Shown here in pieces: positions 1-63,232 of a stretch of 63,232 bases of DNA. Numbering within the stretch: the first letter of the stretch is position 1; each line of letters opens with the position of its first letter. Below the pieces are notes generated by a model. It saw nothing but the letters and a program-made list of their open reading frames with translations. It was not told the origin of the DNA and did no database searches. Made by a program: the position numbers and the translations under genes. Origin of the DNA: Acidimicrobiales bacterium (GTDB taxonomy: Bacteria; Actinomycetota; Acidimicrobiia; Acidimicrobiales; CAVXTF01); NCBI GenBank assembly GCA_049281195.1, contig JBAPRR010000455.1, positions 1-63,232 on the forward strand, written 5' to 3'.

Positions 1-242
1 GTTACATACCTGTAAAGCGACATGGTTGTGAAACCGAGCTCCTTGGCCACCCTGGCCATCGAGACAGCGGCGAACCCCTCGTCGTCCGCCACGCGGATCG
101 CGGCGTCGACGATCGCGTCCACCGACAGCCCCGGCTTGGGACCGCGCCGGCCGCGCTCCCGTCTCCCCCAGAGCACGTCGAGTCCGGGCGGAAGAGCGGT
201 TTCTTCGCCGCCGGCGCAGGACCCCTTCTTTTCTTTTCTCAC
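1..242 (-). CDS. TetR/AcrR-family transcriptional regulator, N-terminal part only (gene runs off the left edge)
   Basis: Absent from the ORF track because it has no stop in the window. Reverse-complement translation from GTG (240-242) reads VRKEKKGSCAGGEETALPPGLDVLWGRRERGRRGPKPGLSVDAIVDAAIRVADDEGFAAVSMARVAKELGFTTMSLYRYV, a typical TetR HTH. Divergent from the ABC operon at 278. Confidence 0.75.
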   Translation of the reverse strand, partial: MRKEKKGSCAGGEETALPPGLDVLWGRRERGRRGPKPGLSVDAIVDAAIRVADDEGFAAVSMARVAKELGFTTMSLYRYV

Positions 243-277
243 GCCCTTGACTATAACTGCGTGCGCCATATACGGTT

Positions 278-2010: not shown

Positions 2011-2018
2011 CAACGTGT

Positions 2019-2540
2019 CTAACCGGTCAACCTTCCGGCAAGGATCTGCTCACGCAGGATGTCAGCGTGCCCGCAATGCATTGCGAGCTCGCGGATCATA
2101 TGGATGTAGACCCATCGAAGCGGGAGAGGGCTTCGGCGGTTACCGAGTAGGAGATCGTCGAGGCCGATTCCAGCTGCAGCACGACGCGAGACTTCACAGG
2201 CATCAGAATGTTCCTGTTGCACCGAGGCAACTGAGTCCTCGGGACTCAGGATGAAGGACTGTTCTGCGTCGTCGGGGATGCCGATTTCTTCCCGGGAACG
2301 GCACGTGATTCCTTCGTCGAACCAAACCCTCTCTACGAACGTGGCGTGCTTCAACAGCCCCAGCGGGGTGGTGCGAGATGGCACCAGAGATCTCCGGGCC
2401 TCCTCCTCTGTAAGCCCGTCGAGGGTCTCGTTGAGCCCACACCGGTGTTCTTCGAGAAAAGCTTCGAGTTGCTGTCGGATCGGGGCGTCAATGACGTCAG
2501 CCGCGGTCGTCGTCGGGAAGCTGGACATGCTCCACAGCAT
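2019..2540 (-). CDS. DinB-family / DUF664 protein
   Basis: 173 aa. C-terminal WVYIHMIRELAMHCGHADILREQI resembles the DinB/DUF664 four-helix metal-binding His pattern common in actinobacteria. Confidence 0.75.
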   Translation of the reverse strand: MLWSMSSFPTTTAADVIDAPIRQQLEAFLEEHRCGLNETLDGLTEEEARRSLVPSRTTPLGLLKHATFVERVWFDEGITCRSREEIGIPDDAEQSFILSPEDSVASVQQEHSDACEVSRRAAAGIGLDDLLLGNRRSPLPLRWVYIHMIRELAMHCGHADILREQILAGRLTG

Positions 2541-2583
2541 CCCAGACAGACGTGTCAGGGGCTGCCAGATGCGCAGTTAACGT

Positions 2584-5716: not shown

Positions 5717-6793
5717 TCACCCAAGCGTGACCTGAGGCTCAGTTGCCGCGTTCGCTCCGCTCCGGCGACGCCGGACGAGCCAGTACAGGATCCAGCCGAG
5801 GGCGAGGATCAGCCAGAAACTGATAAAGCGGTAGAGCAGCACCGCTGCCATCGCCTTGGTCGCCGGCAGCCTCGCTGCCACCAGCGCCGCGGCAAGAGCC
5901 GGCTCGACCACGCCGAGTCCACCGGGGGTCAGATTGAAGCTGGCCGCTCCAGCGCCCGCCGCCCAGGCCAGAATCAGGTCGTTCCATGGAACGTGTAGGC
6001 CCACCGCCCGGATCGACAGGGCCAGGCAGCCAATGTCGAGGAGCCAGTTCAAAACCGAGGAGACCGAAGCCACGACCTTGTCGAAACGGGTGACACGAAG
6101 CGCGGCCATCGTTTGGATCGCCTCGCGAATCACGAGCTCGGGGTCATCGCCGGTCTTCTTGGTGATGCGGCGTCCCTGTTTGACCGCCCAGGCGCCGACC
6201 GCGATCAACTTGTCCTCGATGCGAGGACGAGTCGAGGCGACTCGAACCGCGACCAGCGGCAAAGCAACGAGAACGACGCCGGCTACGCCGGCGACCTCGG
6301 CGAGCGGGTGGCCGGAAACGATGGCACCGGCTGACACCACGAGACCGAACGCGACGGTGGAGAAGATCCCCGACAGCAGTAGCGCCCAGGTGGCCACCGC
6401 CCGGGTCGCGCCTCTGGCGGAGAATTGGCGGTGAAGAAACGCCGTGCCCACTCCGCTTCCCGCTATGGGAAGCGTGACGGCAATGGCATTTCCGGCGTAG
6501 GTGATCGCCACCATCGACTCGATGGTGAGCTTGATCCCACCCGAACGAAGAACGCTCCTTTGCATGCGGGCGAACGCTGCCATCGAAGTCCACTCGAGAG
6601 CGACCGCCACCCAGACGGCTCCCCATCTCAGGTGGCCCAGCTGCGTGATCGAGTTTCCGAGAATGGACCGGTAGCGCTGGATGGTGGCGAAGAGGATGAT
6701 CACCGCCAGAGCAACGACGAGCCACCGCTTCCAGTGACGGCGCCACCCATTACGTACCTGGATTTCGGCCTGAAGTAGTTCGGGCTCCGGCAC
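5717..6793 (-). CDS. UPF0104 / lysylphosphatidylglycerol-synthase-TM-region-like (flippase-like) membrane protein
   Basis: 358 aa polytopic membrane protein. The basic N-terminus followed by WKRWLVVALAVIILFATI and the overall layout are typical of the UPF0104 family. Confidence 0.7.
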   Translation of the reverse strand: MPEPELLQAEIQVRNGWRRHWKRWLVVALAVIILFATIQRYRSILGNSITQLGHLRWGAVWVAVALEWTSMAAFARMQRSVLRSGGIKLTIESMVAITYAGNAIAVTLPIAGSGVGTAFLHRQFSARGATRAVATWALLLSGIFSTVAFGLVVSAGAIVSGHPLAEVAGVAGVVLVALPLVAVRVASTRPRIEDKLIAVGAWAVKQGRRITKKTGDDPELVIREAIQTMAALRVTRFDKVVASVSSVLNWLLDIGCLALSIRAVGLHVPWNDLILAWAAGAGAASFNLTPGGLGVVEPALAAALVAARLPATKAMAAVLLYRFISFWLILALGWILYWLVRRRRSGANAATEPQVTLG

Positions 6794-6865
6794 CTTCCGT
6801 CCTTCCTGACGGCGTCAGTTCCGGTCGGGGATCACACTATTGACTGCGCACAGAACGCAATTCCC

Positions 6866-7924
6866 TCAGCTTGCGAAACGTTCCCCCGTCCCGGCCACCA
6901 AGTCGCGGACCCTCGGAATCACCTCGGTCCCGTAGAGCTCGATAGCCCGCATCAGCTTTTCGTGGGGCATGCGACCGGCGCTGTACTTCAGGTCGAAACG
7001 GTCGATCCCGAGAATCGAGGCCGTCCTGGCGATCTTTCCTGCCACGGTCTCCGGGGATCCAACGTAGAGCGATCCATGTGCTGAAGCTTCGTGATCGAAC
7101 TGCGACCGTGTCATCGGGGGCCATCCCCTCGAAGCACCGATGCGGTCGCGCGCCTCTTTGAAGTATGGCCACAGCTCCTCACGCGCCTGCTCGTCGGATT
7201 CCGCGACGTAACCAGGGGAGTGAACCCCGATTGGAAGCGAGTCCTTGCCGAACTCCTCGAGCGCACGCCGGTAAAGGTCGGCGTAAGGCTCGAACCTCTG
7301 AGGGTCTCCACCGATGATCGCTAGAACCAAAGGCAGGCCGTAGTGGGCGGCCCTGACGACCGACTCCGGGCTTCCTCCGACTCCTACCCATGTTTTCAAC
7401 GAACTGGATTCGGTGGTGGGATAAACGCGTTGGCTCTCGAGAGACGACCTGGTATTTCCCGACCAGGACACCTCGCCTTCTTCGAGAAGCTTGACGAACA
7501 GTTCCAGTTTCTCTTCGAAGAGCTCCTCATAGTTGTTCAAGTCGAACCCGAAAAGCGGAAACGATTCGGTGAACGATCCGCGGCCGAGGATGACCTCCGC
7601 GCGACCGTTCGAGGCCGCGTCAAGCGTCGCGAAACGCTGGAACACGCGAACCGGGTCATCCGAGCTCAATACCGTTACGGCGGATCCGAGCCGGATGTGC
7701 TCGGTCTGCCCGGCGATTGCGGCCAACACCGTCTCGGGGGCCGAGATGGCGAAGTCGACCCGGTGATGCTCACCCACTCCGAAGAAATCCACGCCCACCC
7801 GGTCAGCCAGCACACCTTCATCGATCACGTTGCGGATCGCCTGAGCGTGGGACACCAACTCGCCATTTTCGTCTTCGTTCACGTCCCCGAACGTGTCCAA
7901 ACCAAACTCCAGGCCCTTGTTCAT
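6866..7924 (-). CDS. LLM-class (luciferase-like) flavin-dependent oxidoreductase
   Basis: Starts at internal ATG 7924 (MNKGLEFGLDTFGD...). The 63-codon extension in the track is Arg/Ser-rich and overlaps the TetR 3' end. Motifs VDFFGVGEHH and ILGRGSF are typical of LLM enzymes. Confidence 0.9.
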   Translation of the reverse strand: MNKGLEFGLDTFGDVNEDENGELVSHAQAIRNVIDEGVLADRVGVDFFGVGEHHRVDFAISAPETVLAAIAGQTEHIRLGSAVTVLSSDDPVRVFQRFATLDAASNGRAEVILGRGSFTESFPLFGFDLNNYEELFEEKLELFVKLLEEGEVSWSGNTRSSLESQRVYPTTESSSLKTWVGVGGSPESVVRAAHYGLPLVLAIIGGDPQRFEPYADLYRRALEEFGKDSLPIGVHSPGYVAESDEQAREELWPYFKEARDRIGASRGWPPMTRSQFDHEASAHGSLYVGSPETVAGKIARTASILGIDRFDLKYSAGRMPHEKLMRAIELYGTEVIPRVRDLVAGTGERFAS

Positions 7925-8063
7925 GGCCAGCGCTATCTCCTTCCAGAACTTTCTGCTACCTCTACAGTTGACATAACAACTAACTCTAGGTTGAACGCCT
8001 GACTCAGGCGGATATTCCCGGGGTGAGCTCCTGGGGACCGGACAGAGACGCCGAAACGAACGC

Positions 8064-8792
8064 CTACAGGTCGGCAGCGATTCCGTTGAGGATCCGCCCC
8101 AGCCCTCGCGCAAATCCGAGCTCTACGCGATCCGGCGCGTGGGGGCCTGTGGCGTCGATCACGACCCTCGCAACATGTGGATGGAGCCCTTCTTCGATGA
8201 TGGTTCTCATGTAATCGCTATATGACGCCATCCACTGCTCGACGGTCACCCCGCTTCTTAACGTCCCCTCCTCTTCGGCGAATTCGCTGAGGGCGTACCC
8301 GCGAACGAAAGCCTCGATCGTCATCATGATCACTAACTGCTCATCGATGTCGAGATCCAACGGATCGAGAGCAGCAAGACCTCGTTCCATCAATACGAGT
8401 CGGTTTGGACCGAGATTCGGCCGTCCCGCTGCGATGGTCGCCATCCAAGGATGCTGGCGAATGACGCCTCGCATCCGGCTGGCGAGGGAGATCAGGTCCT
8501 CGCGCCAGTCCCCCGTCAACTCAGGCACGCCTTCTTCGCCCTCGACCGAGTCGATCATCAGGTCGAGCAACTCGTCCTTACTGGTGACGTACCGGTACAG
8601 GGAAGTCGCTCCTGTGCCGAGGGCAGCCGCGATCCGGCGCATGGAGACCCCCTCGGCTCCGTCGGAGTCGGCAATGGCCACAGCCGCAGCGGCGATGGCC
8701 GCTCTGCTGTATGCCGGCGCCGGACCCTTGGCAGCCCGTTCGGGCCGGTCCCAGATGACCGAGTAGACGCCTGATTCCTCGGGTGCAGACAT
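8064..8792 (-). CDS. TetR/AcrR-family transcriptional regulator
   Basis: HTH VSMRRIAAALGTGATSLYRYVTSKDELL plus a helical C-terminal ligand domain. Divergent from the ABC operon at 8845. Confidence 0.9.
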   Translation of the reverse strand: MSAPEESGVYSVIWDRPERAAKGPAPAYSRAAIAAAAVAIADSDGAEGVSMRRIAAALGTGATSLYRYVTSKDELLDLMIDSVEGEEGVPELTGDWREDLISLASRMRGVIRQHPWMATIAAGRPNLGPNRLVLMERGLAALDPLDLDIDEQLVIMMTIEAFVRGYALSEFAEEEGTLRSGVTVEQWMASYSDYMRTIIEEGLHPHVARVVIDATGPHAPDRVELGFARGLGRILNGIAADL

Positions 8793-8844
8793 GAATCCCT
8801 CTCGGTATTGCGCACACTGTGCTCGGTAGTGTTATATTGTTACT

Positions 8845-9840
8845 GTGAACAGTGTACCCAAAAGCACCAGACCTGCCGGGCCCGACGTCATCGTGGTTGA
8901 CAAGCTGGTCAAGCGGTTCGGCACCACGACAGCGCTCGACGGGATCGACCTGCGTGTTCCCTCAGGAATCGTCTACGGGTTGCTCGGTCCGAACGGATGC
9001 GGGAAGACCACGACGGTGCGAATCCTCGCCACCCTCTCCTCCGTCGATGGCGGACGAGCAGAGGTGTGTGGGTTTGACGTCACCCGCGACCCTGACGAGG
9101 TCCGCAGCCGGATCGGCTTGGTCGGACAGCAGGCGGCCCTCGACGAGAGGCTTCCCGCTCGCCTCAACCTGATCATGTTCGGCCGGCTGTACCACCTCGG
9201 TGAACGTGGTGCGAAGAAGCGCGCAGACGAATTGATCGAGCGCTTCGGTCTCGGCTCAGCGGCGAACCGACTCGTCTCCACGTACTCAGGTGGAATGCGT
9301 CGTCGTCTCGACCTCGCAGCGAGCCTGATCATCTCGCCGCAGCTTCTGTTTCTCGACGAACCGACCACCGGGCTCGACCCACGCGGTCGGAGCGAGGTCT
9401 GGGCGGCGATCAAGGAGTTGACCGACGGTGGCACCACTGTCCTTCTGACGACTCAATACCTCGACGAGGCTGATCAGCTCGCGCAAAGAGTCGCTGTGAT
9501 CGATCAGGGACGCGTCCTCGCCGAAGGAACACCGAGTGACTTGAAGCGAAGTGTCGGCACCGACCGCTTGGAGATAGTGGTCACGGACCCCGCCGCCGTA
9601 GACATGGTGGTACAGCACCTTCGCGCCGCGAATCTGTCGCCCGACGCCGATTGGGAAAACGGCGTTGTGAGCGTGCCGATCATCGACGGACTATCCGACC
9701 TGTCGTCGGCGATCGCGGGCCTGAAGGACAGTGGGGTGCCGATCGGAGACATTTCTCTTCGCCGCTCGAGCCTCGACGACGTGTTTCTCAGCCTGACCGG
9801 ACATGCCACCGAAGACACTGAAGAAAGGGTTGCATCATGA
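8845..9840 (+). CDS. ABC transporter ATP-binding protein (DrrA type), paralogue of 278-1231
   Basis: GTG start. Walker A GPNGCGKTT, signature YSGGMRRRL, Walker B LLFLDEPTTGLD. Confidence 0.95.
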   Translation: MNSVPKSTRPAGPDVIVVDKLVKRFGTTTALDGIDLRVPSGIVYGLLGPNGCGKTTTVRILATLSSVDGGRAEVCGFDVTRDPDEVRSRIGLVGQQAALDERLPARLNLIMFGRLYHLGERGAKKRADELIERFGLGSAANRLVSTYSGGMRRRLDLAASLIISPQLLFLDEPTTGLDPRGRSEVWAAIKELTDGGTTVLLTTQYLDEADQLAQRVAVIDQGRVLAEGTPSDLKRSVGTDRLEIVVTDPAAVDMVVQHLRAANLSPDADWENGVVSVPIIDGLSDLSSAIAGLKDSGVPIGDISLRRSSLDDVFLSLTGHATEDTEERVAS

Positions 9841-30925: not shown

Positions 30926-33628
30926 ATGCAGCGGATCGGTGAGAAGGCCTATGCCGAAGCGCTCGCGGCCCACCACTCGGTCATCCGTGGATGCCTGCAA
31001 GCCCACGATGGCAACGAGGAGGGCACCGAGGGCGACGCGTTCTTCGCCACGTTCTCTTCGGCCCGCTCCTGTGCAGCGGCCGCCGTAGAGATAGATCGGC
31101 GTATCGACGCTCATCCCTGGGGGCCCGGGCAGGCCATCCGGGTGCGAATGGGAATGCATACGGGCGAAGCTGAGGAGACGACCACGGGCCTGGTGGGACT
31201 GGACATTCACCGTGCCGCCAGAGTCGCCGGGGTGGCACACGGCGGACAGATCCTTCTGTCGGAGGCGGTCGCAAGCTTGGTCCGCGGCTTTCTTCCAGAC
31301 GGCGTGGAGCTGACCGACCTCGGCCTGCACCGGCTGAAGGATCTGGGACGGCCCGAGCAGATCTACCAACTCACCATCGATGGCCTGCGATCGGAGTTCC
31401 CTGCTCTCAAATCGTTGGACAACCCGGTCTTGGCGAACAACCTTCCCGTTCTCACTTCGAGCTTCATCGGAAGAGAGCGCGAGCTGTGGGACCTGCGCGA
31501 TCTAGTCAAGTCAGAGCGACTCATCACTCTCACCGGAGCTGGCGGTTCGGGAAAGACCCGCCTCGGGATCCAGCTCGCGGCCGAGACGCTCGATGGCTCC
31601 GGTGATGGCGTGTGGATAGTGGAGCTCGCCGGACTATCCGATCCTGATCTCGTCGTCCCGGCAATTTCCTCGGTGTTGGGCATCGCCGAGCAAAGCGGGC
31701 GATCGCCCCTCGACTCTCTCCTGGACGCACTGAGCCGGCAGGAACTCCTTCTGTTGCTGGACAATTGCGAGCATCTCATTGATACCTGCGCACGGGTCGC
31801 GGATTCGATTTTGCGCCGTTGCTCCGGCGTCCATCTTTTGACGACGAGCCGCGAGCCGCTCGGGATAGACGGCGAGTTCACGTATCGCGTGCCTTCTCTG
31901 TCGCTTCCGCCACCGGGCGCCGATGTGGAAGAGCTGTCAGATCCGGAGACATCCGATGCGGTAATGCTCTTCGTCGAACGAGTGAGATCGCATGGCGCGG
32001 ACTTCTCCCTCGACTCGGACAACGTCAATATGGTCGTTGATATCTGCAGACGGCTCGACGGCCTGCCGCTCGCCATCGAGCTCGCGGCGGCCCGGATGCG
32101 CTCTCTTGGACTGAGGGATCTCAACGATCTGCTCGACAAGCGGTTCCGGTTGCTCACCGGGGGGAGTCGCAGCGCGCTGGAGCGTCAGCAGACTCTCAGG
32201 GCCACCGTGATGTGGTCCTACTCTCTTCTGGACGACTCAGAAAAAACAATGCTGCGTCGATTGTCGGTGTTCGTCGACGGCTTCGACCTCGCCGCGGCAC
32301 GTGCTCTGTGCTCGTCGGACGTCATCACCGAGATCGAGGTCACCGACCTGGTCGGTTCACTGGTCGACAAGAGCCTCGTCGTCATCGAACAGACCGATGG
32401 TGGGATCCGTTACCGGCTCCTCGAAACGATCCGGCAGTTCGCGTCGGAGCAAATCCTCGAAACCGCTTCCGATGAAGCAGAGACGTTGCCGGGCGCGCAC
32501 TGTAGGTATTACCTCTCACTGGCCGAAGAAGCCATGCCACACCTGATCGTAAGAGGCCAAGGTGACTGGTTCAAACGGCTCGATGCCGAGCAGGGAAACC
32601 TTAGACGCGCCATGGAGTTCTCATCAGCCGAATCCGGTCACACAGAGCTCGGCTTGCGATTCGGGAAAGCGCTCAGGTACTACTGGGCGGCACGTCTGAA
32701 AAACACTGAGGCATATGAATTGTTGGTGCCGTTGCTGGATCGCGATGAAGCTCGAAAAGACCCGGAGCTCTATGTGGAGGCCCTCATTTCGGCCTCTGCC
32801 TTCGCCAGGTCTGTCGACATCAACGAGGCTCTGGAATTGGCTGCAAGAGCGGTAGTCGAGGCCGAACGAATCGGCGACGAGCGATTGACGGTGTGGTCGA
32901 CCGCAATTTTGGGAGCAGCGCATTTCTTCGCGGGCGATAGCCAGAAGGCGGCCACCATTTCAGAAGACTGCGTAGAGCGGGCGAGAGCCCTCGGTGATGA
33001 TCTCCTGTTGGCGGAGACCATGGTCCTGCACAGCGAATCACATCTGAGTCTCGACCCTGACGGGTCCAACGAGATCATTTCGGAGGCTCTCGAGATTCTT
33101 GATCGATCGGGAAACATGCTTCTGTTTGCCGATCTGAGCAATAACGCCGGCGTGTTGGCACTTGCAGCGGGTGACCTGGAACGAGCTCGTGGGCATCTGG
33201 CAGCCTCTTCCCGAGCTTTGGAAGAGACCGGAATTTCCATATTTCACGTGAAGATCAATCTTGCTCTTGTCGAGCTGCAACAGGGTGACCCCGCCGGGGC
33301 GGCATCGAATCTGGACCAGGCCGTCCGCATAAGCCGCAGATGCGGCAATCGCTTCGGGCTTGCCTATTCAACTCTCGGAATCGCATGCATGGCGGCGGAT
33401 CTTGCAAGATGGTCCGAGGCTGCGCAGATGCACGGCATAGCACAGGCCTTCTTGGACGAAACGGGTCAACCCTGGCTGTTTCCCTACGCAGATCTGAGAC
33501 ACGAGAGTATCGAAAGGACAAAAGAGGCCCTGGGCGGGCCATTCGATTCGGCATTCACCCAAGGAATGAACCTCGACTATGTGGAGGCCGTGAGACTGGC
33601 CCAAAGGCTTGTCTCCGAAGAGCCATGA
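30926..33628 (+). CDS. Class III nucleotide-cyclase domain + P-loop STAND (NB-ARC/AAA_16-like) ATPase + TPR-like repeats; 5' end unresolved
   Basis: Cyclase motifs GTEGDAFFATF and GLDIHRAARVAGVAHGGQILLS. Walker A GAGGSGKTRL. The C-terminal ~400 aa are helical repeats. The in-frame TFTFLFSDIEGST motif (30881-30919) lies upstream of the first ATG/GTG/TTG, just after stop TAA 30863 (see findings). Confidence 0.85.
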   Translation: MQRIGEKAYAEALAAHHSVIRGCLQAHDGNEEGTEGDAFFATFSSARSCAAAAVEIDRRIDAHPWGPGQAIRVRMGMHTGEAEETTTGLVGLDIHRAARVAGVAHGGQILLSEAVASLVRGFLPDGVELTDLGLHRLKDLGRPEQIYQLTIDGLRSEFPALKSLDNPVLANNLPVLTSSFIGRERELWDLRDLVKSERLITLTGAGGSGKTRLGIQLAAETLDGSGDGVWIVELAGLSDPDLVVPAISSVLGIAEQSGRSPLDSLLDALSRQELLLLLDNCEHLIDTCARVADSILRRCSGVHLLTTSREPLGIDGEFTYRVPSLSLPPPGADVEELSDPETSDAVMLFVERVRSHGADFSLDSDNVNMVVDICRRLDGLPLAIELAAARMRSLGLRDLNDLLDKRFRLLTGGSRSALERQQTLRATVMWSYSLLDDSEKTMLRRLSVFVDGFDLAAARALCSSDVITEIEVTDLVGSLVDKSLVVIEQTDGGIRYRLLETIRQFASEQILETASDEAETLPGAHCRYYLSLAEEAMPHLIVRGQGDWFKRLDAEQGNLRRAMEFSSAESGHTELGLRFGKALRYYWAARLKNTEAYELLVPLLDRDEARKDPELYVEALISASAFARSVDINEALELAARAVVEAERIGDERLTVWSTAILGAAHFFAGDSQKAATISEDCVERARALGDDLLLAETMVLHSESHLSLDPDGSNEIISEALEILDRSGNMLLFADLSNNAGVLALAAGDLERARGHLAASSRALEETGISIFHVKINLALVELQQGDPAGAASNLDQAVRISRRCGNRFGLAYSTLGIACMAADLARWSEAAQMHGIAQAFLDETGQPWLFPYADLRHESIERTKEALGGPFDSAFTQGMNLDYVEAVRLAQRLVSEEP

Positions 33629-53298: not shown

Positions 53299-53598
53299 CG
53301 GAACCCCCTGGATACTAAGGACCAATTCTGGGTAAATCTATTGGTTTGATCGTATTTAGCACATGCGGCGTCAGTCAACACGGCAGGCTCCCAAACTCCC
53401 CAAAACGGGGCGATCCACAGCTTCTGGAAGAAGCATTACCTGAGCCCGCCGCGAAATGTACGCGTAATTGCGCAATTCCATGGAGGGTCCCCTCAGGCCC
53501 AGGCAGAAGGGCTTTCTGCTCGTTTAACATGTCCGCGAGGCGGTGGCGGAGGAAGCGGGACCTCTCCCTCACTGGGGTAAGTGGCGAGGAGGGGACTT

Positions 53599-56500
53599 AT
53601 GCGTTTCGGCGTGAATGTGCGCAGACTCGTTGCACTCCGCCGTCCTGCGGTCCACCGCACGCTGACGGCTCTCCTCATCGCAATGAGCGGCATCTTGACG
53701 TCGGTCGGAGTCTCCTTGCTGACGTCCACGCCCGCGGCAGCAGTGAGCGTCTCAGCGATCGTAACCAACGTTCCAGACGGGGTCACAGCGGTCGCGACCG
53801 ATCCCTCGGGGGTCATCTTCGTCGGTGCAGACGACGGCAACGTCTACGCCTGGTCGCCCACGACCACGGCGCTTTACGACACAAACATTCCTGCCGACAC
53901 GCTCACCTCTCTCACCCCGGGAGGAGTGGGCCAGACATTCAGCCTGGACTACCACAACGGCGACCTATGGATCTCGGATTCGGCCGATGGGCTACAGGTT
54001 CTGTCTCCCACCACGACGACGCTCTACGGAGTTTCGGTCACTGCCGATACTCCGACCACCATCGTTGCCGCCACGTCGAGCGTAGACCCCACACAGGTGA
54101 CTTTCGATTCGAGCAACGACCTGTTCTTCGCTGACAGCGCGACGACGGCAGGAGACGGGTCGGTCGACATCGACCCTGTTGCGAGCGGGACCATTTTCGA
54201 TCAGAACATCACAGCCGACCAGGTTCACCCATTGATCGCCGATCTCAACCAGCCCGACGGCGTTGCGCTCGACTCGTCAGGGGACCTCTTCTTCTCCGAT
54301 GACTCGCTCGACTACATCGGCGTGCTCCCGGTTTCGAGCGGGACCGTCTTCGGCCAACCGGTCAATGCCGACACAGCCAGCGGACTGTTCTACGGCGTCG
54401 TGGGCGTCGACTCGTCGAGCGGGCTCGATGCAGGGCCATTGGACTTTGACTCTTCCGGCGATCTCTACTTCGTCAACCTCTATACAGGCGTCGGCATTGT
54501 GACCAATACGACCGGCACTTATATCGGGACACAGGTCACAGACGACACGCCGACCAACCTCGATCTCGAGATGGACGTGGAGGGAATCGCCTTCCAAACC
54601 TCCGGCCAACTGCTGATGGCCGACGGCGACGACGCAGCGATCGTTTCGGCCGCCGCACCGACTGCCACGATCACAAACGTCAGCATCTCCGGCTCGCTCG
54701 ACAACCCCACGCTCACCGTCACCGGAACCGGCTTCGGTACCGAGCCCGCGGCAGTCGCCCCGGGGTGCAGCGCGTCCGGCAACGACTACAGCTACAGCAC
54801 TTTCGTCTTGAGCGACTCTCAACAGCAATGGCAGGCCGGCATGCCCGGTGACTGCGTGGCTTTCAACATTGTCTCCTACAACGCGACTCAGGTCGTCGCC
54901 ACGTTCGGAAGTTGGTACACCGATCAAGAGGTGGGCTCCGGCACCGAGATCCACCCCGGCGACAACTTGTGGGTGGGGCTGGCCGGCGCATACGCACCGG
55001 CCACCGTCCCCGGAGTCACGTCGGTGGTGCCGGACACCGGGCCGGACTCGGGTGGGACGACTGTGACGATCTCCGGAGAAGGGTTCACCGGCGCCACAGC
55101 CGTCGACTTCGGCCCGGGAAACCCCGCCTCATTCACCGTTGATGACGACAACCAGATCACCGCCACATCGCCGGCGACCGGGACAGGCACGGTCGACGTG
55201 ACTGTGACCACGCCGGTCGGCACCTCTGCGACCTCGTCAGCTGATCAATTCACCTTCACCAACGACGTCGCTTCTGACTACTCCTGCACCGTGCCGGGAG
55301 ACGGGACCAACAGCTTCGCCATAGAGGTAACCGAATCGCCCAAGGCCCCGACCTCAGAAGATGTCGGTACGAACTTCGAAGAAGCACCATCCGTCGAGGT
55401 CACGATTCCGGCGCCCGTCGTCGAGTACTACATCGGCCAGGGGGCCTTTTCGCTCAATCTCGAGTCACAGTCCGCTACGGAAAACGGGCTGGCGTCACCC
55501 GATGGGGCGGCGAGCGGCGCGGTCAGCCCCAACTCGGAGTCCAGTTCGGCGAACGATGTCCCGCAGACATTCAGCCCGCTCTCCGACAGTTCGATCACGT
55601 ACCAGACCACCTACGACCCAGTGACCTGGCAGACAGGGCCTGGGACGGGGACCGTGTACCTGACCCCGGGCGACATCAACATCGTGCTGACCTACGACGT
55701 CGACAGCACACCTGAGAGCTCCCAGGTGTCATGTTCGCCGCCTTCCAACGAGGCCGCAGTCGACACCACGACGGTCGAGCCCGCGGCGACAAGCCCCACT
55801 TACCAGGTACCGACATCCACTCCCCCGGTGCAGAGCGGGGTCACGTCCGGAAATGACGACGGGTGGACGTTCGTCATTGCCAACACATCTGACGACACGG
55901 TGACCGGCTTGCAGACTCAGGTGACGATCACCGATGGCGGAACTCCACCTTCGTTCGACACAACGGCCATCTCAGCCTCGGGAACTAAGGATTGCACGGT
56001 CACCTCTCCGGGTGTTCTGACCTGTACCGAGAACGACCTGGACGCCGGCGCGACCGACACCATCAATGTCCTCGTAGATACCAGCGGACTGACACAAGGC
56101 GTGGGCGTCGAAGGTTCGGCTTCGGTGACCTCCACCAATGCCGGTTCCGCCGGTGACAGCCTGGGCCAGTTTTCAGTGGTGGTGGTGAACAATGGCGTCG
56201 AGTCGTCGGCGGTGCCTGGCATCGCCCTCGCATCGAGCTCTCTGCCACTGTCCGATACGGGAGCGGCTGTCACGTTGACGCTTCCGAAGAACAAGATTCC
56301 GGTCGCTGGACCACATGCATCCGGTGCCGTCCCTGACGGTTCTGCAAAGACAAAGCCGCCGGTCGTCGGAGTCACCCTCGAACCCGTACCGGAATCCGAT
56401 GAGCCCACACTGTGCCCGCCGGCGTCGGGCGGCTGCCCGACCGACGTACTCGAGGTCGAGGGAACCTTTACGAACTACGTGAACGCGGCCCATCCGCTCA

Positions 56501-56739
56501 TCGCAGTGCTTCAGTACTACTTCGGATCTTCGAAGCCCAAGGGCCCCGTGTACATGCTCGAGGACAGCGGGACCGTGCTCGCACTCGGCGCGTGCGTGCA
56601 GTCGAAAAAGACCGGCGACTGGAATACACCTTGTGTGGACGGGGCGCAAAAGACCACCGGGTCCAAGGGCAAGGGCACCCTGAGTGTGGAAGACATCGTC
56701 TACTTCACCGGGAACGACCCGGGTTTCTCCCTCCGGTGA
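53599..56739 (+). CDS. Secreted 1046-aa multidomain protein: signal peptide, NHL-like six-blade propeller, IPT/TIG domain, DUF11-like repeat
   Basis: GAGGAGGGG Shine-Dalgarno 5 nt before ATG 53599. Signal-like MRFGVNVRRLVALRR...LLTSTPAAAVS. Six repeats of the form PDGVALDSSGDLFFSD / GPLDFDSSGDLYFVN. IPT/TIG GVTSVVPDTGPDSGGTTVTISGEGFTGATAVDFG (about 55008-55260). No LPXTG motif or C-terminal TM seen. Confidence 0.8.
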   Translation: MRFGVNVRRLVALRRPAVHRTLTALLIAMSGILTSVGVSLLTSTPAAAVSVSAIVTNVPDGVTAVATDPSGVIFVGADDGNVYAWSPTTTALYDTNIPADTLTSLTPGGVGQTFSLDYHNGDLWISDSADGLQVLSPTTTTLYGVSVTADTPTTIVAATSSVDPTQVTFDSSNDLFFADSATTAGDGSVDIDPVASGTIFDQNITADQVHPLIADLNQPDGVALDSSGDLFFSDDSLDYIGVLPVSSGTVFGQPVNADTASGLFYGVVGVDSSSGLDAGPLDFDSSGDLYFVNLYTGVGIVTNTTGTYIGTQVTDDTPTNLDLEMDVEGIAFQTSGQLLMADGDDAAIVSAAAPTATITNVSISGSLDNPTLTVTGTGFGTEPAAVAPGCSASGNDYSYSTFVLSDSQQQWQAGMPGDCVAFNIVSYNATQVVATFGSWYTDQEVGSGTEIHPGDNLWVGLAGAYAPATVPGVTSVVPDTGPDSGGTTVTISGEGFTGATAVDFGPGNPASFTVDDDNQITATSPATGTGTVDVTVTTPVGTSATSSADQFTFTNDVASDYSCTVPGDGTNSFAIEVTESPKAPTSEDVGTNFEEAPSVEVTIPAPVVEYYIGQGAFSLNLESQSATENGLASPDGAASGAVSPNSESSSANDVPQTFSPLSDSSITYQTTYDPVTWQTGPGTGTVYLTPGDINIVLTYDVDSTPESSQVSCSPPSNEAAVDTTTVEPAATSPTYQVPTSTPPVQSGVTSGNDDGWTFVIANTSDDTVTGLQTQVTITDGGTPPSFDTTAISASGTKDCTVTSPGVLTCTENDLDAGATDTINVLVDTSGLTQGVGVEGSASVTSTNAGSAGDSLGQFSVVVVNNGVESSAVPGIALASSSLPLSDTGAAVTLTLPKNKIPVAGPHASGAVPDGSAKTKPPVVGVTLEPVPESDEPTLCPPASGGCPTDVLEVEGTFTNYVNAAHPLIAVLQYYFGSSKPKGPVYMLEDSGTVLALGACVQSKKTGDWNTPCVDGAQKTTGSKGKGTLSVEDIVYFTGNDPGFSLR

Positions 56740-56754
56740 TCTGACCAGACGGAG

Positions 56755-59700
56755 ATGAACGCCGCCAGCGGTTCCGACCTCTTCCTCCCCTACCTCACCG
56801 CCCCGGCGGTGGCGTGGGCGCGAGACGAGGCAGCAAACGAGAGCGCAACGCGCTCGCAGTCCGTCGCCGGGACGATGGTGTTCGGTGACATCTCGGGATT
56901 CACAAAGATGTCGGAGCGCCTGGCACGCCACGGCAAGGTGGGCGCAGAAGAGGTCGCCGACGCCATCAACACCTGCTTCGAGCAACTCCTCGACGCCGCC
57001 TACAAGTTGGGCGGGAGCCTGTTGAAGTTCGGCGGCGATGCGATGCTGCTCCTTTTCACAGGTCCGGACCACGCCATAAGAGCGGCCCATGCCGCGATCG
57101 GGATGCGCTCCCGACTACGCAGCGCCGGTCGGTTGCACACCACGGCGGGCGAGGTGGTTCTCCGCATATCGGTCGGAGTTCACAGCGGTACGTTCGACCT
57201 GTTTCTCGTGGGAGATTCTCACCGCGAGCTCGTTGTCGCCGGGCCTGACGCCAGCACAACAGTTGATGCCGAGGCCACGGCGTCCGCCGGCGAGATCGTG
57301 ATGAGCGCGCAGACCGCGGCCCTGTTGCCGGCCCGGGCCAGAGGCCCGGCATGCGGAGCGGGATACCTGCTTCGTTCCCCCGGCGGTCCCCCGCCTCGGA
57401 TGGCGCCGAAGCGCCCCGATCCGGGACAAGCCGACATCTCCCGCTTCGTGCCGGCAGCCATCAGGCGCCACCTGGTCGAAGGCGGAGAAGAGCACGAGCA
57501 CCGGACTGCCACCGTGGCGTTCTTACACTTCGACGGCATAGACGACCTGGTGACGGAATTGGGCATCCACGAGGTGGCGCGACAACTCGATGCCGTGGTC
57601 CGGGCCGCGCAGGCCGCGGCCGACAGCCACCAGGTGAGCTTCCTGGGAACAGACATCGACAAGGACGGGGGAAAGATCATCCTCACCGCCGGCGTGCCGA
57701 GCCGCGCCGGCGACGACGAACAGCGGATGCTCCTTGCCGTCCGACAGGTCCTCGACCAACAGTTGCCACTGCACCTTCGCGTTGGCGTGAACACCGGGCC
57801 GGTATTCGCCGGCGATATCGGAACTCCGTTTCGGCGCACGTTCACCGTCATGGGCGACACGGTGAACCTCGCGGCCCGCTTGATGGCACGGGCCGAGCCC
57901 GACCAGGTCCTGGTCACAAAAGAGACTCTCAGCCGATCTGACGTCCAATTCGTCGCCGCCGAGCTTCCACCCTTCACCGTCAAGGGAAAGCGGCGGCCGG
58001 TGCAGGCGTTCGCAGTCGGCGCTCCGGACCGCGCTCACCGTTCTGTCACCGATCGCCTGCCACTGACCGGACGCGAAGAAGAGGTCGCTGTCCTGAGAGA
58101 GGCCGTCCGGGCGGCCTCCACGGGAGCCGGACGCGTGGTGGAGTTGGTCGGCGACCACGGATCAGGCAAGTCACGGCTGGCGGAGGTGCTTGTCGCTGAG
58201 TCCGAAACCCTTCCCACTTTCACGATCGTGTGCGAGCCGTACGAGTCGGCCACGCCTTACGCCACTTTCAACATTTTGGGGCGGGCCCTTGTCGGCGTGG
58301 AAATGGACGCCGCGGCCGAAACAGTGCGACAGAACCTCGTCACCTACCTCGAGCGGGAGGCTCCCGATCTGCGCTCCGACCTGTCGTTGCTCGCAACGGT
58401 CATCGGCCTGGATCTTCCCGACCCTCCGGCATTGGCCGCACTCGAGCCCGAGTTTCGTCGTCAGGCGGTGGCGGAGGCTTCCGCCCACTTGTTCTGCCGC
58501 GCTCTCGGACTCCCACGCGTGCTCGTGATTGAAGATGCGCAGCACATGGATCCTGCGTCGCAACAGATCATGGGGATCATGGTGCGCAACCTCGCCGAGC
58601 GCCCCGGTGCAATCTGCATCACCAGAAGGGAAACCGACGGAGGTTTCTCCGTCGATGAGGCGCCGCATACACGATCGGTGTTGCTTGCTCCTTTGACATC
58701 CATCCAGGCCAAGGCGGCACTGATCGCGGCCACAGAAGATGAGCCTCTCCTGCCTCACGAGATCCAGTTCATGGCCGACCGCAGCATGGGCAACCCTCTC
58801 TTCTTGGAGGAGCTGTGGCGATCGCGTCGAGACGGCGCAGGTATAGAAGCGCTCCCCGACTCGGTCGACGCCGCGGTCGGCGTGCAGATCGACAGCCTCC
58901 GTGCGCGGGACCGCCGCATCCTGCGATCCGCTTCTGTGCTCGGCTCGGTCTTCTTCGAGCGCGACCTCCGTGAACTGCTCGAGGCGTCAGGTCTTTTGAT
59001 CGACGATGGACTTGACCCAGGAGCACGCTCTTCGGCTCTGCCGCGATCGCTCGACCAGTTCCTCACCACCGACTCATCCGGCCTCGTGCGGTTCAGTTCC
59101 GCCCTAGTACGCGAGTGCGCGTACGAGGGACTCCCTTATCGCCGCAGACGCGAACTTCACGGGCGCGCCGCTGAGAGGCTCGAGGCCAGGGGCGGCACCG
59201 AATCCGACGCCGAGGTGCTGTCTCTTCACTACTTCTACGCGCAGCAGTTCGCCGCGGCGTGGCACCACGCTCGCACTGCCGCGCGCAACGCCAGCGACAA
59301 ATACGCCAACGTGGAATCGGCGAGACTGTACGAGAGAGCGCTGGCATGCACATCGCACATCGATGACCTGAACCGCGCAGACGTTGCGTCGGCGTGGGAG
59401 ATGCTCGGCGACGTGCGCGAGCGCGCCGGTGACTTCAAAGGCGGTGCTGCGGCCTACCGTCGAGCTGGGGGACTCACCACCGAGGTCGTCGCAAAGGCCG
59501 AGCTGTGCCTCAAAGAAGCTTGGATGGCTGAACGCCTCGGGCAGTTCCCATTGGCGGTGAGATGGATCCGCCGCGGATTGCGGGCTATCGCGAACCTCGA
59601 CAACCGGCCCGCGGGCCAGCTCCGCGCCCAGTTGATGACTTGGTACACCGCCGTCCGCCAAGCCCAGGGCCGGAGCTCCGAAGCAGTCGTCTCCGGCGAG

Positions 59701-60648
59701 CGGGCCGTCGCAGAAGCCAGAACCTGGGGTAATCGCAAGGCCGAGGCACACGCCCTGTCCCTACTCGACTGGGCTCTGGTTTCCCTCGGGCGCGCCGGTT
59801 CGGCCAACCACTCCGAAGATTCGGTGGCTATTTACCGCGAGCTCGGGGACCTCGGCGGGGAAGCGCAGGTGCTCAACAACATGGGCGGCTTCGCGTACTT
59901 CCGCGGCGCATGGGACGAAGCCGTCTCTTTCTACCGCCAGGCCCAGGACATCCGCCTGCGGACCGGCAACGAGGTGGAGGCGGCGATCTGCACCTTCAAC
60001 ATCGGAGAGATCCTGTCGGATCAGGGACACTTCGACGAGGCCCGCCCGCACCTGGACGAAGCTCTGCGCGTGCTGCGCGCGGCGCGCTATTCATGGGGGA
60101 TCGGCTACGCCATGATGCTGATCGGCAGGTTGGAGTCGCGCACGGGCTCCTTCGACTCCTCGTGGACCCACTTCGAGTCGTCACTGCGGGCGTTTCACGA
60201 GGTCGCCCGCGAAGCCGACGCATTTCAAGTGGAGTCGCTGATCGCCGAGTCCCTTGTCTTCCAGGGGCGGGCCACCGAGGCGCTCGACATCGCCGTTCGT
60301 CTAGCTGCGGATGTGGCCCGCGTCGGCTCAGCCGTGGGGAACGCGCTGGTCGAACGGGTGCGGGGGTACGCACTGGCACAACTCGGGGATCTCCGAAGCG
60401 CCGGTAGCGCTTTTGAAGCCAGTCGAACGACGGCGGAGGAGCTCGGAGCCGATTACGAGCTGATGCTGACGCTCGACGCCATGCGCTCGACAGGGGTCAG
60501 CTACCCAGACGGACATTCGCCCGAAGAGCTCACCGTGCGTATCGACGAGCTGCGCCAGCGACTCGGGATCGTGGTTCTTCCCGTGGTACCGATGACGGCG
60601 GCGGGTTCATCCCACACGTTTACCGGGCTGGTGGGCTCCCCGAGCTAG
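56755..60648 (+). CDS. Tandem class III cyclase homology domains + P-loop STAND ATPase + TPR-like repeat protein (1297 aa)
   Basis: CHD1 motifs FGDISGFT (56881-56904) and GGDAML (57031-57048). CHD2 motif [10 protein letters not shown] (57853-57882). Walker A GDHGSGKS (about 58150-58173). The C-terminal ~600 aa are helical/TPR-like repeats (e.g. [28 protein letters not shown]). Confidence 0.9.
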
Positions 60649-60745
60649 CCGGCATCGGCGCAGCCGGGGCGGGGAGATACAGCGCCGTGACCGTGTCTTC
60701 AGGCAGCATGGCAGACCTGTCGGGAGTAGCGGGAGGACTTTGAAC

Positions 60746-63232
60746 ATGCGCGGAGCGGGAGCGATCACGGCTGACTCGGTAACCGAGGGTGCGGGAGTCG
60801 TTCCCCCTGCACAGTCTCGTCCTTACGCCCCGATGGCCGCCATCGGTGTCGCCGCGTTCGGCGCGTTCCTCGCCTTCATGGACTCGACCGTGGTCAATGT
60901 GGCATTCCCCAACATCCAGGCCGCATTTCCGCACGCCACGGTCAGCACTCTTTCGTGGGTCCTCAATGCGTACAACGTGGTTTTCGCCGGCCTCCTCGTA
61001 CTTTCCGGACGTTTCGCCGACCTGCTCGGGAGGAGGCGCCTGTTCAAGCTGGGCCTGCTCATCTTCACCATCGCATCGGCCTTGTGCGCGGCGTCCAACT
61101 CGGTGGGAATGCTCATCGGGCTCAGAGCCATACAGGCTGTGGGCGCGGCCATGCTCGTTCCAGCCTCGCTCGGGATAGTCGTACATGCCTCGCCCAGCGA
61201 GCACAGGACCAGAGCGCTCAGCATCTGGGCGGCGGCGGCCGCTCTCGCCGCGGGCCTCGGGCCGCCGATCGGCGGTGCGTTGGTCGATCTCTACAATTGG
61301 CGTCTCGTATTCCTGATCAACGTCCCGCTCGGGTTGTTGGCCTGGGTCCTCGCCCGGCACGCCGTGATCGAAAGCCGTGCACCGGGAAGCCGCGTGATGC
61401 CGGATCTGCGCGGCGCCCTCCTGCTGTCGGCCGCCATCGGCTCGGTGACCCTCGGCGTGGTGCAGGGAAGCACATGGGGCTGGGCGAGCATCGGCACCGT
61501 CAGTGCATTCGTGGTCTCCGCACTGTGCGTGGCGCTGACTGTCCTGAGCTCGATGAAGCACCGATCCCCGGTGCTCGATCCGCAACTGCTCCGCATACGT
61601 GGCTTTCTCGTCTCCAACATCGTGACAGTCGCCTGCGGGCTCGGCCTTTACTGCTACCTGCTCGCCCACATCCTGTGGTTGCACTACGTGTGGGGATACT
61701 CGCTGCTCCTGGCCGGGCTCGCCGTCGCTCCTGGTGCGGTGGTAGCCGCCATCGTCTCGGTGCCTGCGGGGCGCCTGGCCGAGCGGATAGGCCCGCGACC
61801 CGTCGTCGTAGTGGGATCGATTGTGTGGGGCCTGGCCTACGTGTGGTACTCCACCCGCGTCGGGCTCAGACCCGACTTCGTCGGCCAGTGGCTGCCCGGG
61901 CAGATAATCAGTGGCATCGGTGTGGGCTCCACACTTCCCACCGCGTCGGCCGGAGGCCTGGCCACGGTCCCGGCCGGTCGTTACGCCACCGCATCTGCGG
62001 TCAACTCGAGCGCCCGCCAACTGGGAGGCGTTCTCGGGATCGCCATCCTCACCGTCTTCATCTCCCACGAGACGATCCTCACCTTCGCCGACGACGTGAG
62101 GCGGGGCTGGAAGCTCGCGGCAGGCGCCTTCTTCGTCGCCGCGTTCGTGGCGCTCTTCTTCGGGCGCATCCACGAGTCGAGCGAGGAAACCGACGTCGGA
62201 TCACGAGGTCCGTTGCTCGATCAGAGACCCGAGCCGGCTGTGGTGGCGGCGACACGTCGCGAAGGGGCCGACTTTCTCGACCTGCTCCCGGCTCAGGTGA
62301 GAACCCGGCTGATCGAAACCGGAGAACCCCTCGAACTGCGCGCTGGAACAACCTTGTTCTCGAGCGGCGAAGTCGGCGACGCCCTGTACGTGCTTCAGGC
62401 CGGGAGACTGGAATTGGAACGGCCCGATGGAGGGCGCCTGGACTTCTATCCCACCTCCACCTTCGGGGAGCTGGCGCTGCTCACGGACGCGCCCCGTTCG
62501 GGAACGGTCATCGCCCGGCGTGACAGCCGGTTGGTGCGCGTCAGTCGCGAGCGGTTCGACGGTCTGGCCGCCGCTGAACCTGCCGTGATGGACGCCGTGG
62601 CCAGAGGTATCGCCTTCCGCCTCCACGACAGCACCCCGATGAACCCTCCGGCGCGCCCCGAGCCGAAGGTCCTGTCGGTTGTGGGGGTCGACGTCGACAC
62701 CGAGGCCCAGAAAGTGGCGGCGGTCGTCCAAGGTGGCCTCGTGGAGAAAGGCCTGCGGGTGGCACTGCTCGCCGACTTCGCGCCCGACGGGCTCCAGCGG
62801 GCCGAGTCGGACAACGACAGGGTCGTCCTCGCATGCGGACGCAGCAGCACATGGCGCGACGCGGGCCTCCGCCAGGCCGATCGCGTGGTGCTCGTCTCCA
62901 GTAATCCGGCTGAGACCGGCATGCTGCCGGTCAATGTTCCCTGCGATGTCGTCTTGGTCGGCCACGCGCCGACACAAGCTCAGATCGTGGCATGGCACGA
63001 CGCTTCGGAGTGCCGGCGCGTGTACCACGTCGGTGAGGATCCAGCCTCGTGGCAGGCCGGCCTGCGCGCTCTCATCGCGCGCATCGCCGGTGACTCCGTA
63101 GGACTCGTCCTCGCCGGTGGTGGCGCCAGGTCTCTGGCCCACCTGGGAGTGCTTCACGCTCTCGAGGAGGCCGGAGTCGTCGTCGACCGCGTTTCGGGAA
63201 CGAGCATGGGCGCGTTCATCGCGTCGCTGTAC
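60746..63232 (+). CDS. MFS transporter fused to a cyclic-nucleotide-binding domain and a patatin-like phospholipase domain (3' end beyond the window)
   Basis: Absent from the ORF track (no stop in the window). My manual translation is open for 829 codons from ATG 60746, with GGGAGGA upstream. MFS: [47 protein letters not shown]. cNMP-binding: [14 protein letters not shown]...[18 protein letters not shown] (about 62270-62590). Patatin: [16 protein letters not shown] (63116-63124 = GGG) and the GTSMG nucleophile elbow (63197-63211). Confidence 0.85.

Follow-up and report, generated by a model that had tools for sequence, protein, structure and literature searches.

A cyclase and a membrane lipase fusion encoded side by side in an Acidimicrobiales bacterium: a candidate cAMP-to-lipid circuit

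Three genes at the end of the window

The stretch analysed here (the window) comprises positions 1 to 63,232 of the forward strand of contig JBAPRR010000455.1, from the Acidimicrobiales assembly GCA_049281195.1, and it ends with three long genes that we call g1, g2 and g3. These encode, in that order, a predicted exported protein with a β-propeller; a protein with two class III cyclase homology domains (CHD1 and CHD2), a STAND-type NTPase and a region of TPR repeats; and a fusion of a major facilitator superfamily (MFS) permease, a cyclic nucleotide-binding (CNB) domain and a patatin domain. We propose that the trio is likely to be a local module leading from cAMP to a phospholipase and to lipid transport, an ordinary circuit outside defence, and on balance this is the reading that we favour. 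The proposal is built on the gene order, the domains, the conservation of catalytic and ligand-binding residues, a predicted fold like that of human soluble adenylyl cyclase (sAC) and a neighbourhood that recurs among relatives.

All three genes lie on the plus strand, and our open reading frame (ORF) calls bear out the gaps of 15 nt (g1-g2) and 97 nt (g2-g3) described in an earlier interpretation made from the DNA alone (the sequence-only reading). A terminator-like hairpin was sought in both gaps and found in neither, and g1 is probably co-transcribed with g2. We take the ATG at 53599 as the start of g1, in agreement with the earlier choice, because a GGAGG lies 8 nt ahead of it. The divergent intergenic region in front of g1 is likely to be the promoter region of the trio (Table 1). 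No CRP-type site (TGTGA-N6-TCACA) was found upstream of g1 or g3, and window-wide counts of this pattern are below shuffled expectation.

Table 1. Features of the trio, in window coordinates, and of related loci (L numbers), in the coordinates of each locus
Feature	Position	Strand	Evidence or remark
Divergent intergenic region	53326-53598 (270 nt)		between a luciferase-like monooxygenase gene (minus) and g1
g1	53599..56739	+	ORF; alternative GTG start 53581
g1 predicted six-bladed β-propeller, NHL type	53740..54657	+	AF2 model and Foldseek
g1 IPT/TIG domain	55009..55257	+	Pfam PF01833, E = 4.2e-9, residues 477-559
g2	56755..60648	+	ORF, 1297 aa
g2 CHD1, C1-like	56857..57324	+	metal Asp D45, D95 plus K91; no transition-state Asn/Arg
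g2 CHD2, C2-like	57502..58014	+	degenerate metal positions; T364, N371, R375 kept
g2 STAND-type NTPase (AAA_16)	58063..58599	+	Pfam E = 1.2e-16; Walker A GSGKS 469-473, Walker B VIEDAQ 591-596
g2 C-terminal TPR / MalT-like superhelical region	59443..60453	+	TPR_12, TPR_MalT at residues 1037-1223
g3, 5' part	60746..63232, off window end	+	829 codons seen; about 210-250 codons missing
g3 MFS permease, DHA2/EmrB-QacA type	60839..62170	+	MFS_1 at residues 37-431; TIGR00711 260.9 bits, cut-off 230.2
g3 CNB domain	62333..62572	+	Pfam PF00027, E = 1.1e-15, residues 530-609
g3 patatin start	63104..63232	+	PF01734 residues 787-829, profile positions 1-44 of 191
Soluble CNB-patatin (or patatin) gene, L006	13083-14882	-	convergent, just downstream of g3
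Soluble CNB-patatin (or patatin) gene, L001	13228-15111	-	convergent, just downstream of g3
Soluble CNB-patatin (or patatin) gene, L161	13147-14010	-	convergent, just downstream of g3
Cys-rich gene, L031	8760-9974	-	
Cys-rich gene, L038	8195-9694	-	
Cys-rich gene, L040	7453-9225	-	
Cys-rich gene, L041	8189-9688	-	
Cys-rich gene, L043	5542-8571	-	
Cys-rich gene, L046	8824-9777	-	
Cys-rich gene, L050	8739-9785	-	
Cys-rich gene, L051	8766-9836	-	
Cys-rich gene, L062	5440-6519	-	
Cys-rich gene, L069	from about 8720	-	tblastn
Cys-rich gene, L075	8808-9791	-	
MBL-fold genes			L014, L018, L021, L024, L025, L028, L030, L043, L044, L046, L050, L051, L055, L062, L069, L079, L080
PF04185 gene, L163	8018-9505	-	
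PF04185 gene, L164	5049-6623	+	
PF04185 gene, L165	17654-20566	+	

The cyclase g2

Pfam finds in g2 what the sequence-only reading had listed, namely two cyclase domains, a P-loop NTPase and TPR-like repeats: Guanylate_cyc (PF00211) scores 96.7 bits in two stretches, AAA_16 lies at residues 437-615, TPR_12 is matched with E = 4.2e-17 and TPR_MalT with 30.6 bits, under its cut-off of 45. NCBIfam adds a TPR-protein match at residues 897-1233. A P-loop NTPase followed by a superhelical TPR region is the layout of a STAND NTPase with a TPR sensor (MalT-like). No hydrophobic segment was found in g2, which places it in the cytoplasm, and its homologs, annotated 'class 3 adenylate cyclase/TPR', number more than 6000.

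Residue conservation was counted by column over 56 homologs. In CHD1 both metal-binding Asp and K91 are kept wherever aligned, D45 in 54 homologs and both K91 and D95 in all 56. At the corresponding places of CHD2, position 260 is variable and position 307 is an invariant Lys that stands in for the second metal Asp, while T/S364 (52/56), N371 (50/56) and R375 (56/56) are retained. K472 of the NTPase is present in 56/56, and E593 and D594 are nearly invariant. A phmmer search against the PDB aligned D45/K91/D95 of CHD1 to D47/K95/D99 of the C1 domain of human sAC (E = 2.5e-10), and matched CHD2 to sAC C2, to the C2 domain of transmembrane adenylyl cyclases and to Rv1625c. We read a C1/C2 division of labour in g2 because CHD1 holds the metal Asp residues and CHD2 the transition-state Asn/Arg, and the two domains would appear to form a pseudo-heterodimer of the class III heterodimer type. 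The predicted structure agrees with this: in a Foldseek search with an AF2 model of residues 1-440 (pLDDT 83, pTM 0.85) the best 22 PDB matches are all the human sAC C1-C2 core (TM 0.74-0.78, E 1e-24 to 1e-21).

Judged by this model, the closest structural analogue of g2 seems to be full-length sAC (ADCY10), which had been overlooked in the sequence-only reading, and the predicted architecture is that of full-length sAC rather than that of the antiviral STAND (Avs) proteins. Both have a tandem C1-C2 class III core in one chain with one active site, and with a TM of about 0.75 the predicted core of g2 aligns with that of sAC in its entirety. The spacing T364...N371...R375 in g2 is that of T405...N412...R416 in sAC. 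In full-length sAC a STAND P-loop NTPase has likewise been predicted after C1-C2, and its regulator is still unknown (PMC12802110); the C-terminal halves of the two proteins are compared here by their layout. The differences are an identity of only about 20%, the lack in g2 of an equivalent of Arg176, and the finding of no evidence in g2 of haem or autoinhibitory segments, its TPR region being clear. Proteins of the g2 type may be regarded as bacterial counterparts of full-length sAC, and loci in which they have conserved partners, such as an exported protein or CNB effectors, should be tractable for finding the cues of STAND cyclases.

The window holds a further ORF of this kind. At 30926-33628 (+), 23 kb upstream, 900 codons encode a C-terminal TPR_12 region, a P-loop GAGGSGKT and a degenerate cyclase remnant (IRVRMGMHTGE...HRAARVAG, by BLASTP against g2). 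This is apparently a distant g2 paralog, the cyclase of which would be catalytically dead.

The permease-lipase fusion g3

Pfam and NCBIfam confirm that g3 is a fusion of MFS, CNB and patatin domains, and its hydropathy profile agrees with a polytopic permease. Its CNB domain has a phosphate-binding cassette (FGELAL 573-578, PRS 583-585), and its patatin part has the oxyanion-hole GGGAR (791-795) and the nucleophile elbow GTSMG (818-822). Full-length relatives of 1020-1090 aa with all three domains are abundant in Actinomycetota, and in 19 of them that we aligned the G-E-L and Arg of the CNB domain and the GGGxR, GxSxG and DG motifs of patatin are invariant, the DG motif (D930-G931 of the homolog P0127) supplying the patatin catalytic Asp. 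From the conservation of the cassette Glu/Arg and of the three patatin motifs, g3 looks competent as a receiver, and its Ser-Asp dyad is presumably intact.

The best PDB relatives of the MFS part of P0127 are EfpA (E = 7.5e-45), EmrB and QacA, and those of its CNB domain are protein kinase A regulatory subunits and Epac. Permeases of the DHA2 family have 14 transmembrane segments, and by this analogy the CNB-patatin half of g3 should face the cytoplasm. EfpA (Rv2846c), which like other DHA2 proteins belongs to the best solved relatives of the g3 permease, lacks the CNB and patatin extensions. It is reported to bind lipids and to transport them (PMC11536138, PMC11375168).

The exported protein g1

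A single hydrophobic segment lies near the N-terminus of g1 (hydropathy, ORF residues 30-48), as a signal peptide or an anchor. The TIG domain is the sole Pfam domain detected in g1, NHL being undetected by Pfam (E = 3.1); g1 homologs carry faint NHL/SGL matches. An AlphaFold model built from 14 homologs predicts a six-bladed propeller at about ORF residues 54-359, with a pLDDT of about 85-94 over residues 20-325 of P0241, and its top Foldseek matches are Pizza6 designed six-bladed propellers (TMt 0.77-0.82, E ~1e-10). Beyond the propeller the model has β-sandwich domains, followed by a low-confidence C-terminal tail that contains Cys. The NHL-like propeller of the sequence-only reading therefore stands on AlphaFold and Foldseek, and its TIG domain on Pfam, whereas the DUF11-like repeat was not detected in g1; a weak PF01345 match occurs only in a distant relative (P0309, locus L166). 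Together with the hydrophobic segment, the model points to g1 being an exported NHL-type propeller/Ig-like protein.

Recurrence of the g2-g3 neighbourhood

A scan with the g3 alignment, using one genome per GTDB species, gave 432 relatives, and for the 80 best loci we inspected 10 kb on either side; g2 was counted as linked where a full-length homolog of at least 300 bits lay within 10 kb of the g3 homolog. A g2 homolog is linked in 18 of the 80 loci; among the 54 loci whose flanks both reach at least 8 kb, 15 are linked. The linked loci come from Acidimicrobiia, Nocardioides, Microbacterium, Actinotalea and Jatrophihabitans, and they show at least three gene orders. In L001 and L009, g2 lies with g1 immediately upstream of g3, and in L161, which is arranged alike, only 14 nt separate g2 from g3; in Nocardioides aestuarii, N. 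potassii, Microbacterium mangrovi and several metagenome-assembled genomes g2 is upstream with one minus-strand gene between; in Actinotalea lenta (L044) and in L072 it is divergent to g3, and in L004-L006 it lies downstream and convergent.

These 18 cases in 1.33 Mb of g3 flanks amount to 13.6 per Mb. As a control we used 0.52 Mb of flanks from 83 g2-centred loci (80 metagenome loci and three sister-clade loci), in which neither a second g2-like gene nor a g3 was found. The linked loci fall into at least 8 separate clades of a neighbour-joining tree of g3 and into at least three lineages of the g2 tree, and within the large Actinomycetes-class clade the topologies of g2 and g3 are congruent. 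The flanks are otherwise wholly different, with a luciferase-like monooxygenase, an FMN reductase and an ECF sigma factor in the window versus LexA, NrdR and HflX in L162. Because the link recurs in varied orders and lineages and the flanking genes differ, the g2-g3 neighbourhood would seem to be under selection, and the data argue for this rather than for leftover synteny. The sequence-only reading would have been refuted had related genomes carried the genes only apart; the adjacency proved conserved in part, being missing from the other 62 of the 80 loci. The functional coupling of cyclase and receiver that had been suggested is supported by the linkage and by a g2 homolog directly upstream of a CNB-patatin gene in L006.

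We found no literature on the pairing of a cyclase with an MFS-CNB-patatin protein, or on the wider neighbourhood with genes for CNB-patatin, CNB-ABC and exported proteins. The neighbourhood nominates a cognate cyclase for the orphan MFS-CNB-patatin family and points to lipid remodelling over drug efflux.

One of the linked loci, L009, is irregular. The alignment of its g2 homolog is broken into two parts (query 4-244 and 356-1297), the regions concerned being 94-4962 and 5941-9780, and a g1-like gene is present twice in tandem, with one copy truncated. A frameshift, a pseudogene or an assembly problem could account for this.

An exported companion of g2

A g1-like gene stands directly upstream of the g2 homolog in the window and in L001, L009, L161, L164 and L166, and nearby in L163, and three further contigs (103974, 372992 and 34613) carry homologs of both. 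In Acidimicrobiia even g2 homologs with no more than 47% identity have a g1-like gene ahead of them (L163, L164, L166), and in this class g1-g2 is a tighter pair than g2-g3.

Elsewhere the neighbour is a different exported protein. In 11 Actinomycetes-class loci a secreted Cys-rich protein of 317-1009 aa, with an invariant Cys pattern and without a Pfam or NCBIfam match, is in every case encoded between the g2 and g3 homologs. In L006 one strand encodes a 1361-aa Ig-like (Big_3_5) protein, the g2 homolog and a 599-aa CNB-patatin, convergent with the MFS-CNB-patatin gene. Since g1, a Cys-rich or a Big_3_5 protein stands beside g2, an exported protein is its constant companion, whatever the fold. 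Homology between g1 and the Cys-rich family was considered and is unproven, BLASTP, hmmsearch and hhalign being non-significant despite C-terminal Cys motifs that look similar.

A proposed circuit and its alternatives

We propose that the STAND ATPase and the TPR sensor of g2 switch the cyclase on in response to a cue, and that a single active site would take its metals from CHD1 and its transition-state Asn/Arg from CHD2. The product, which is most likely cAMP, would bind the cytoplasmic CNB domain of g3, and also the soluble CNB-patatin encoded just downstream in close relatives. Binding would activate the patatin Ser-Asp lipase, which would then hydrolyse phospholipids on the inner side of the membrane, and transport of the lipid substrate or product would fall to the fused DHA2-type MFS part. 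Overall, membrane lipid would be remodelled or exported under the control of cAMP. The conserved partner g1 may act as an input or as a co-regulated output. We infer the nucleotide that is made, the gating of the lipase by it, the lipid substrate and the trigger.

Several observations weigh against this proposal. cAMP is diffusible, and any cyclase could feed g3. The locus counts ignore shared ancestry, and the pairing is facultative, as 62/80 g3 loci have no g2 within 10 kb. Conversely, no g3 was found near g2 in the 28 g2-centred loci whose flanks measure 5 kb or more, and a reverse scan of metagenome contigs with the g2 alignment found g3 in 0/80 loci; the homologs in that scan have at most 44% identity and the contigs are mostly short, so that it bounds the linkage and does not refute it. 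In the nearest sister clade of g2 (P0005 and P0006, 59-60% identity) g1 is upstream and a SnoaL_4 gene, instead of g3, is downstream. The sequence-only reading had called the trio 'self-contained' and a 'complete pathway', and in view of the unlinked loci, the g2-centred loci and the sister clade this was an overstatement. Position 303, the base-contact Lys of CHD2, is K in the window and H/R/A/T in most of the 56 homologs, and because it varies the sequence does not settle whether the enzyme is specific for ATP, so that cAMP is the likeliest product without being established. The bicarbonate-site Arg176 of sAC corresponds to Val170 in g2, no Arg occurs in that segment family-wide, and the catalytic Asp of this g3 copy falls past the end of the window. 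In the literature that we found, Rv3728 and Rv3239c are listed as a hypothetical or putative efflux pump or as a hypothetical esterase (PMC10865251, PMC6300501).

Bicarbonate regulation of g2, by analogy with sAC, was considered and is rejected for want of that Arg, the Lys being kept (K91).

The best surviving alternative, which we regard as possible though unlikely, is that g2 and g3 are loose neighbours that act independently in a large actinobacterial cAMP network and are held near each other by inherited synteny or by a general clustering of signalling genes. The unlinked g3 loci and the lack of a partner at all sampled g2-centred loci agree with it, as do the size of the g2 family, the presence of the distant g2 paralog in the same window and the finding of g2 homologs beside pstSCAB-like genes (L167), MoxR-VWA genes (L168) and a PAS-GGDEF-EAL gene (L166). 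It does not account so readily for the contrast between the g3 flanks and the empty control, for the return of the link in other gene orders and in separate g2 lineages amid wholly different surroundings, or for the separate link of g2 to a soluble CNB-patatin in L006.

A second alternative, which seems to us improbable, takes g1 as the real partner of g2 and g3 as incidental, so that the cyclase would sense or control an envelope protein and cAMP would act globally. The g1-like genes upstream of g2, the shared contigs, the sister clade that keeps g1 without g3, and the pairing of g2 with another secreted protein in other lineages (Cys-rich in 11 loci, Big_3_5 in L006) are what it would predict. 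However, a partnership with g1 leaves g3 free to be the output; the Actinomycetes-class loci have their secreted gene between g2 and g3, so that the three genes stay together; no homology between g1 and the Cys-rich proteins could be demonstrated; and there is no known mechanism by which a cytoplasmic TPR region would read an exported protein.

An Avs, Pycsar or CBASS type of system had also been suggested for the trio, in view of its similar logic, and PADLOC does give matches, all of them at the level of single domains (about 30-52 bits). PycC models match the g2 CHDs, scoring 49.7 bits on a stretch of 43 residues and 40 bits on CHD1, and they match the L006 homolog with 52 bits; the g3 CNB domain alone matches Pycsar TIR-effector models (46.8-51 bits), the transmembrane part being a bona fide DHA2 transporter; and models of CBASS phospholipase effectors give about 30 bits with the patatin. 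No Avs model matched g2 or its L006 homolog, and no CD-NTase model matched the three trio proteins or the window ORFs scanned. We scanned 36 window ORFs with Pfam, the trio included, and these encode metabolic enzymes, transporters and regulators, with three lacking a Pfam match; neither here nor in the related loci, where the context is one of housekeeping and metabolic genes (LexA, NrdR, HflX), did we find phage, IS, integrase or defence genes, as the sequence-only reading had itself cautioned for the flanks. Over the loci sampled, the g2 and g3 trees largely follow taxon labels, and the linked copies share their topology in the Actinomycetes-class clade, so that the distribution looks vertical and not like the patchy spread of defence genes. 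Anti-phage abortive infection, in which the STAND-TPR part would sense a phage protein and a cyclic (possibly pyrimidine) nucleotide would let a CNB-gated patatin/MFS protein destroy the membrane, is very improbable, as the weak matches on CHDs, CNB and patatin and the non-canonical residue at the CHD2 base-contact position in the family are outweighed by their partial nature, by a tandem C1/C2 core unlike the single CHD of PycC, by the context and by the trees. The trio is very probably not an Avs, Pycsar or CBASS system.

With the tempting but unsupported idea of a new defence system removed, we come back to the cAMP-to-lipid module, and we are inclined to see in the trio a cyclic-nucleotide circuit of the housekeeping type, encoded on the chromosome of an Acidimicrobiia-like actinobacterium, and not a new class of system. 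A bolder extension of it, which we offer as a doubtful speculation, would join the exported propeller/Ig-like (or Cys-rich) protein, the sAC-like STAND-TPR cyclase and the cNMP-gated patatin lipases, free or fused to the lipid-type MFS transporter, into one envelope-to-lipid pathway, in which the TPR-STAND part would read the state of the exported protein (a fragment released from it, its folding or its export). Were this so, sAC-type STAND cyclases would have their first ligand class and their first cognate effector, and the orphan Rv3239c/Rv3728 family would have a function.

Two minor observations on the window may be added. The 959-aa ORF at 2584-5463 (+) has no Pfam match at E <= 1e-5, and no tRNA gene was found in the window.

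Comparison with known systems

The MFS-CNB-patatin architecture and the size of about 1050 aa are those of Rv3239c and Rv3728. Mycobacterial g3 homologs of this type were retrieved from M. szulgai (L054) and M. angelicum (L057), with about 46% identity to g3; they have no g2 homolog within 10 kb and have a CNB-patatin-like gene upstream instead. For g2, the mycobacterial proteins Rv0386, Rv1358 and Rv2488c offer a similar actinobacterial combination of class III cyclase, STAND-type ATPase and TPR repeats in what is treated as housekeeping cAMP signalling; these have a single CHD that works as a homodimer and a C-terminal LuxR helix-turn-helix, whereas g2 has two complementary CHDs and no helix-turn-helix.

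With Pycsar and CBASS (CapV) the trio shares a cyclase beside a receiver whose nucleotide-binding domain would control a membrane-damaging effector, and it differs in lacking a full-length model match and a defence-island or mobile context and in its vertical, lineage-wide distribution. CBASS uses CD-NTases and SAVED or other sensors, not a class III CHD plus a CNB domain, and only one CHD is present in PycC. The cytoplasmic half of g3 resembles PNPLA6 and Rv2565-type proteins, in which a CNB domain lies N-terminal to a patatin Ser-Asp lipase, and so does the product of the gene (599-627 aa) beside g3 in Acidimicrobiaceae relatives, the difference being that g3 adds a 14-TM-type MFS permease. 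To our knowledge regulation by cyclic nucleotides is not established for enzymes of the neuropathy target esterase type. We count g2 as a further member of the sAC-like CHD-CHD-STAND-TPR family and g3 as a further member of the Rv3239c/Rv3728-type family. Neither g2 nor g3 is new as an architecture, and what we found unreported is the recurrent neighbourhood and its extensions.

Further recurrent neighbours

A patatin gene follows g3 in 10/80 loci, and as relatives have one there, one is to be expected just past the end of the window. The call in L161 (Table 1) is only 287 aa long, possibly through truncation or a frameshift. Small CNB proteins adjoin g3 or g1 in L040/L162, L043 and L161, and in L166 an ABC ATPase fused to a CNB domain (2323-4365, minus strand), with an FtsX-type permease beside it, lies near the pair of g2 and the g1-like gene with the PF01345 match, as a further candidate for a membrane machine gated by a CNB domain.

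A gene for a protein of the metallo-β-lactamase (MBL) fold (Lactamase_B_2) occurs near g3 homologs in 17/80 loci, mostly at about 13.2 kb on the minus strand. It gives a weak full-length match to NF041851, a cyclic-nucleotide-degrading phosphodiesterase (50.7 bits, cut-off 400), and also matches RNase Z; the hydrolase may be the 'eraser' of the circuit.

Near g2 homologs without g3 we also observed genes of the PF04185 Phosphoesterase family (phospholipase C / acid phosphatase), in L163, L164 and L165, while the gene set immediately after the g2 homolog of L167 encodes a pstSCAB-like phosphate ABC transporter. Taken as a group, these neighbours hint that phosphate or phospholipid is a common theme.

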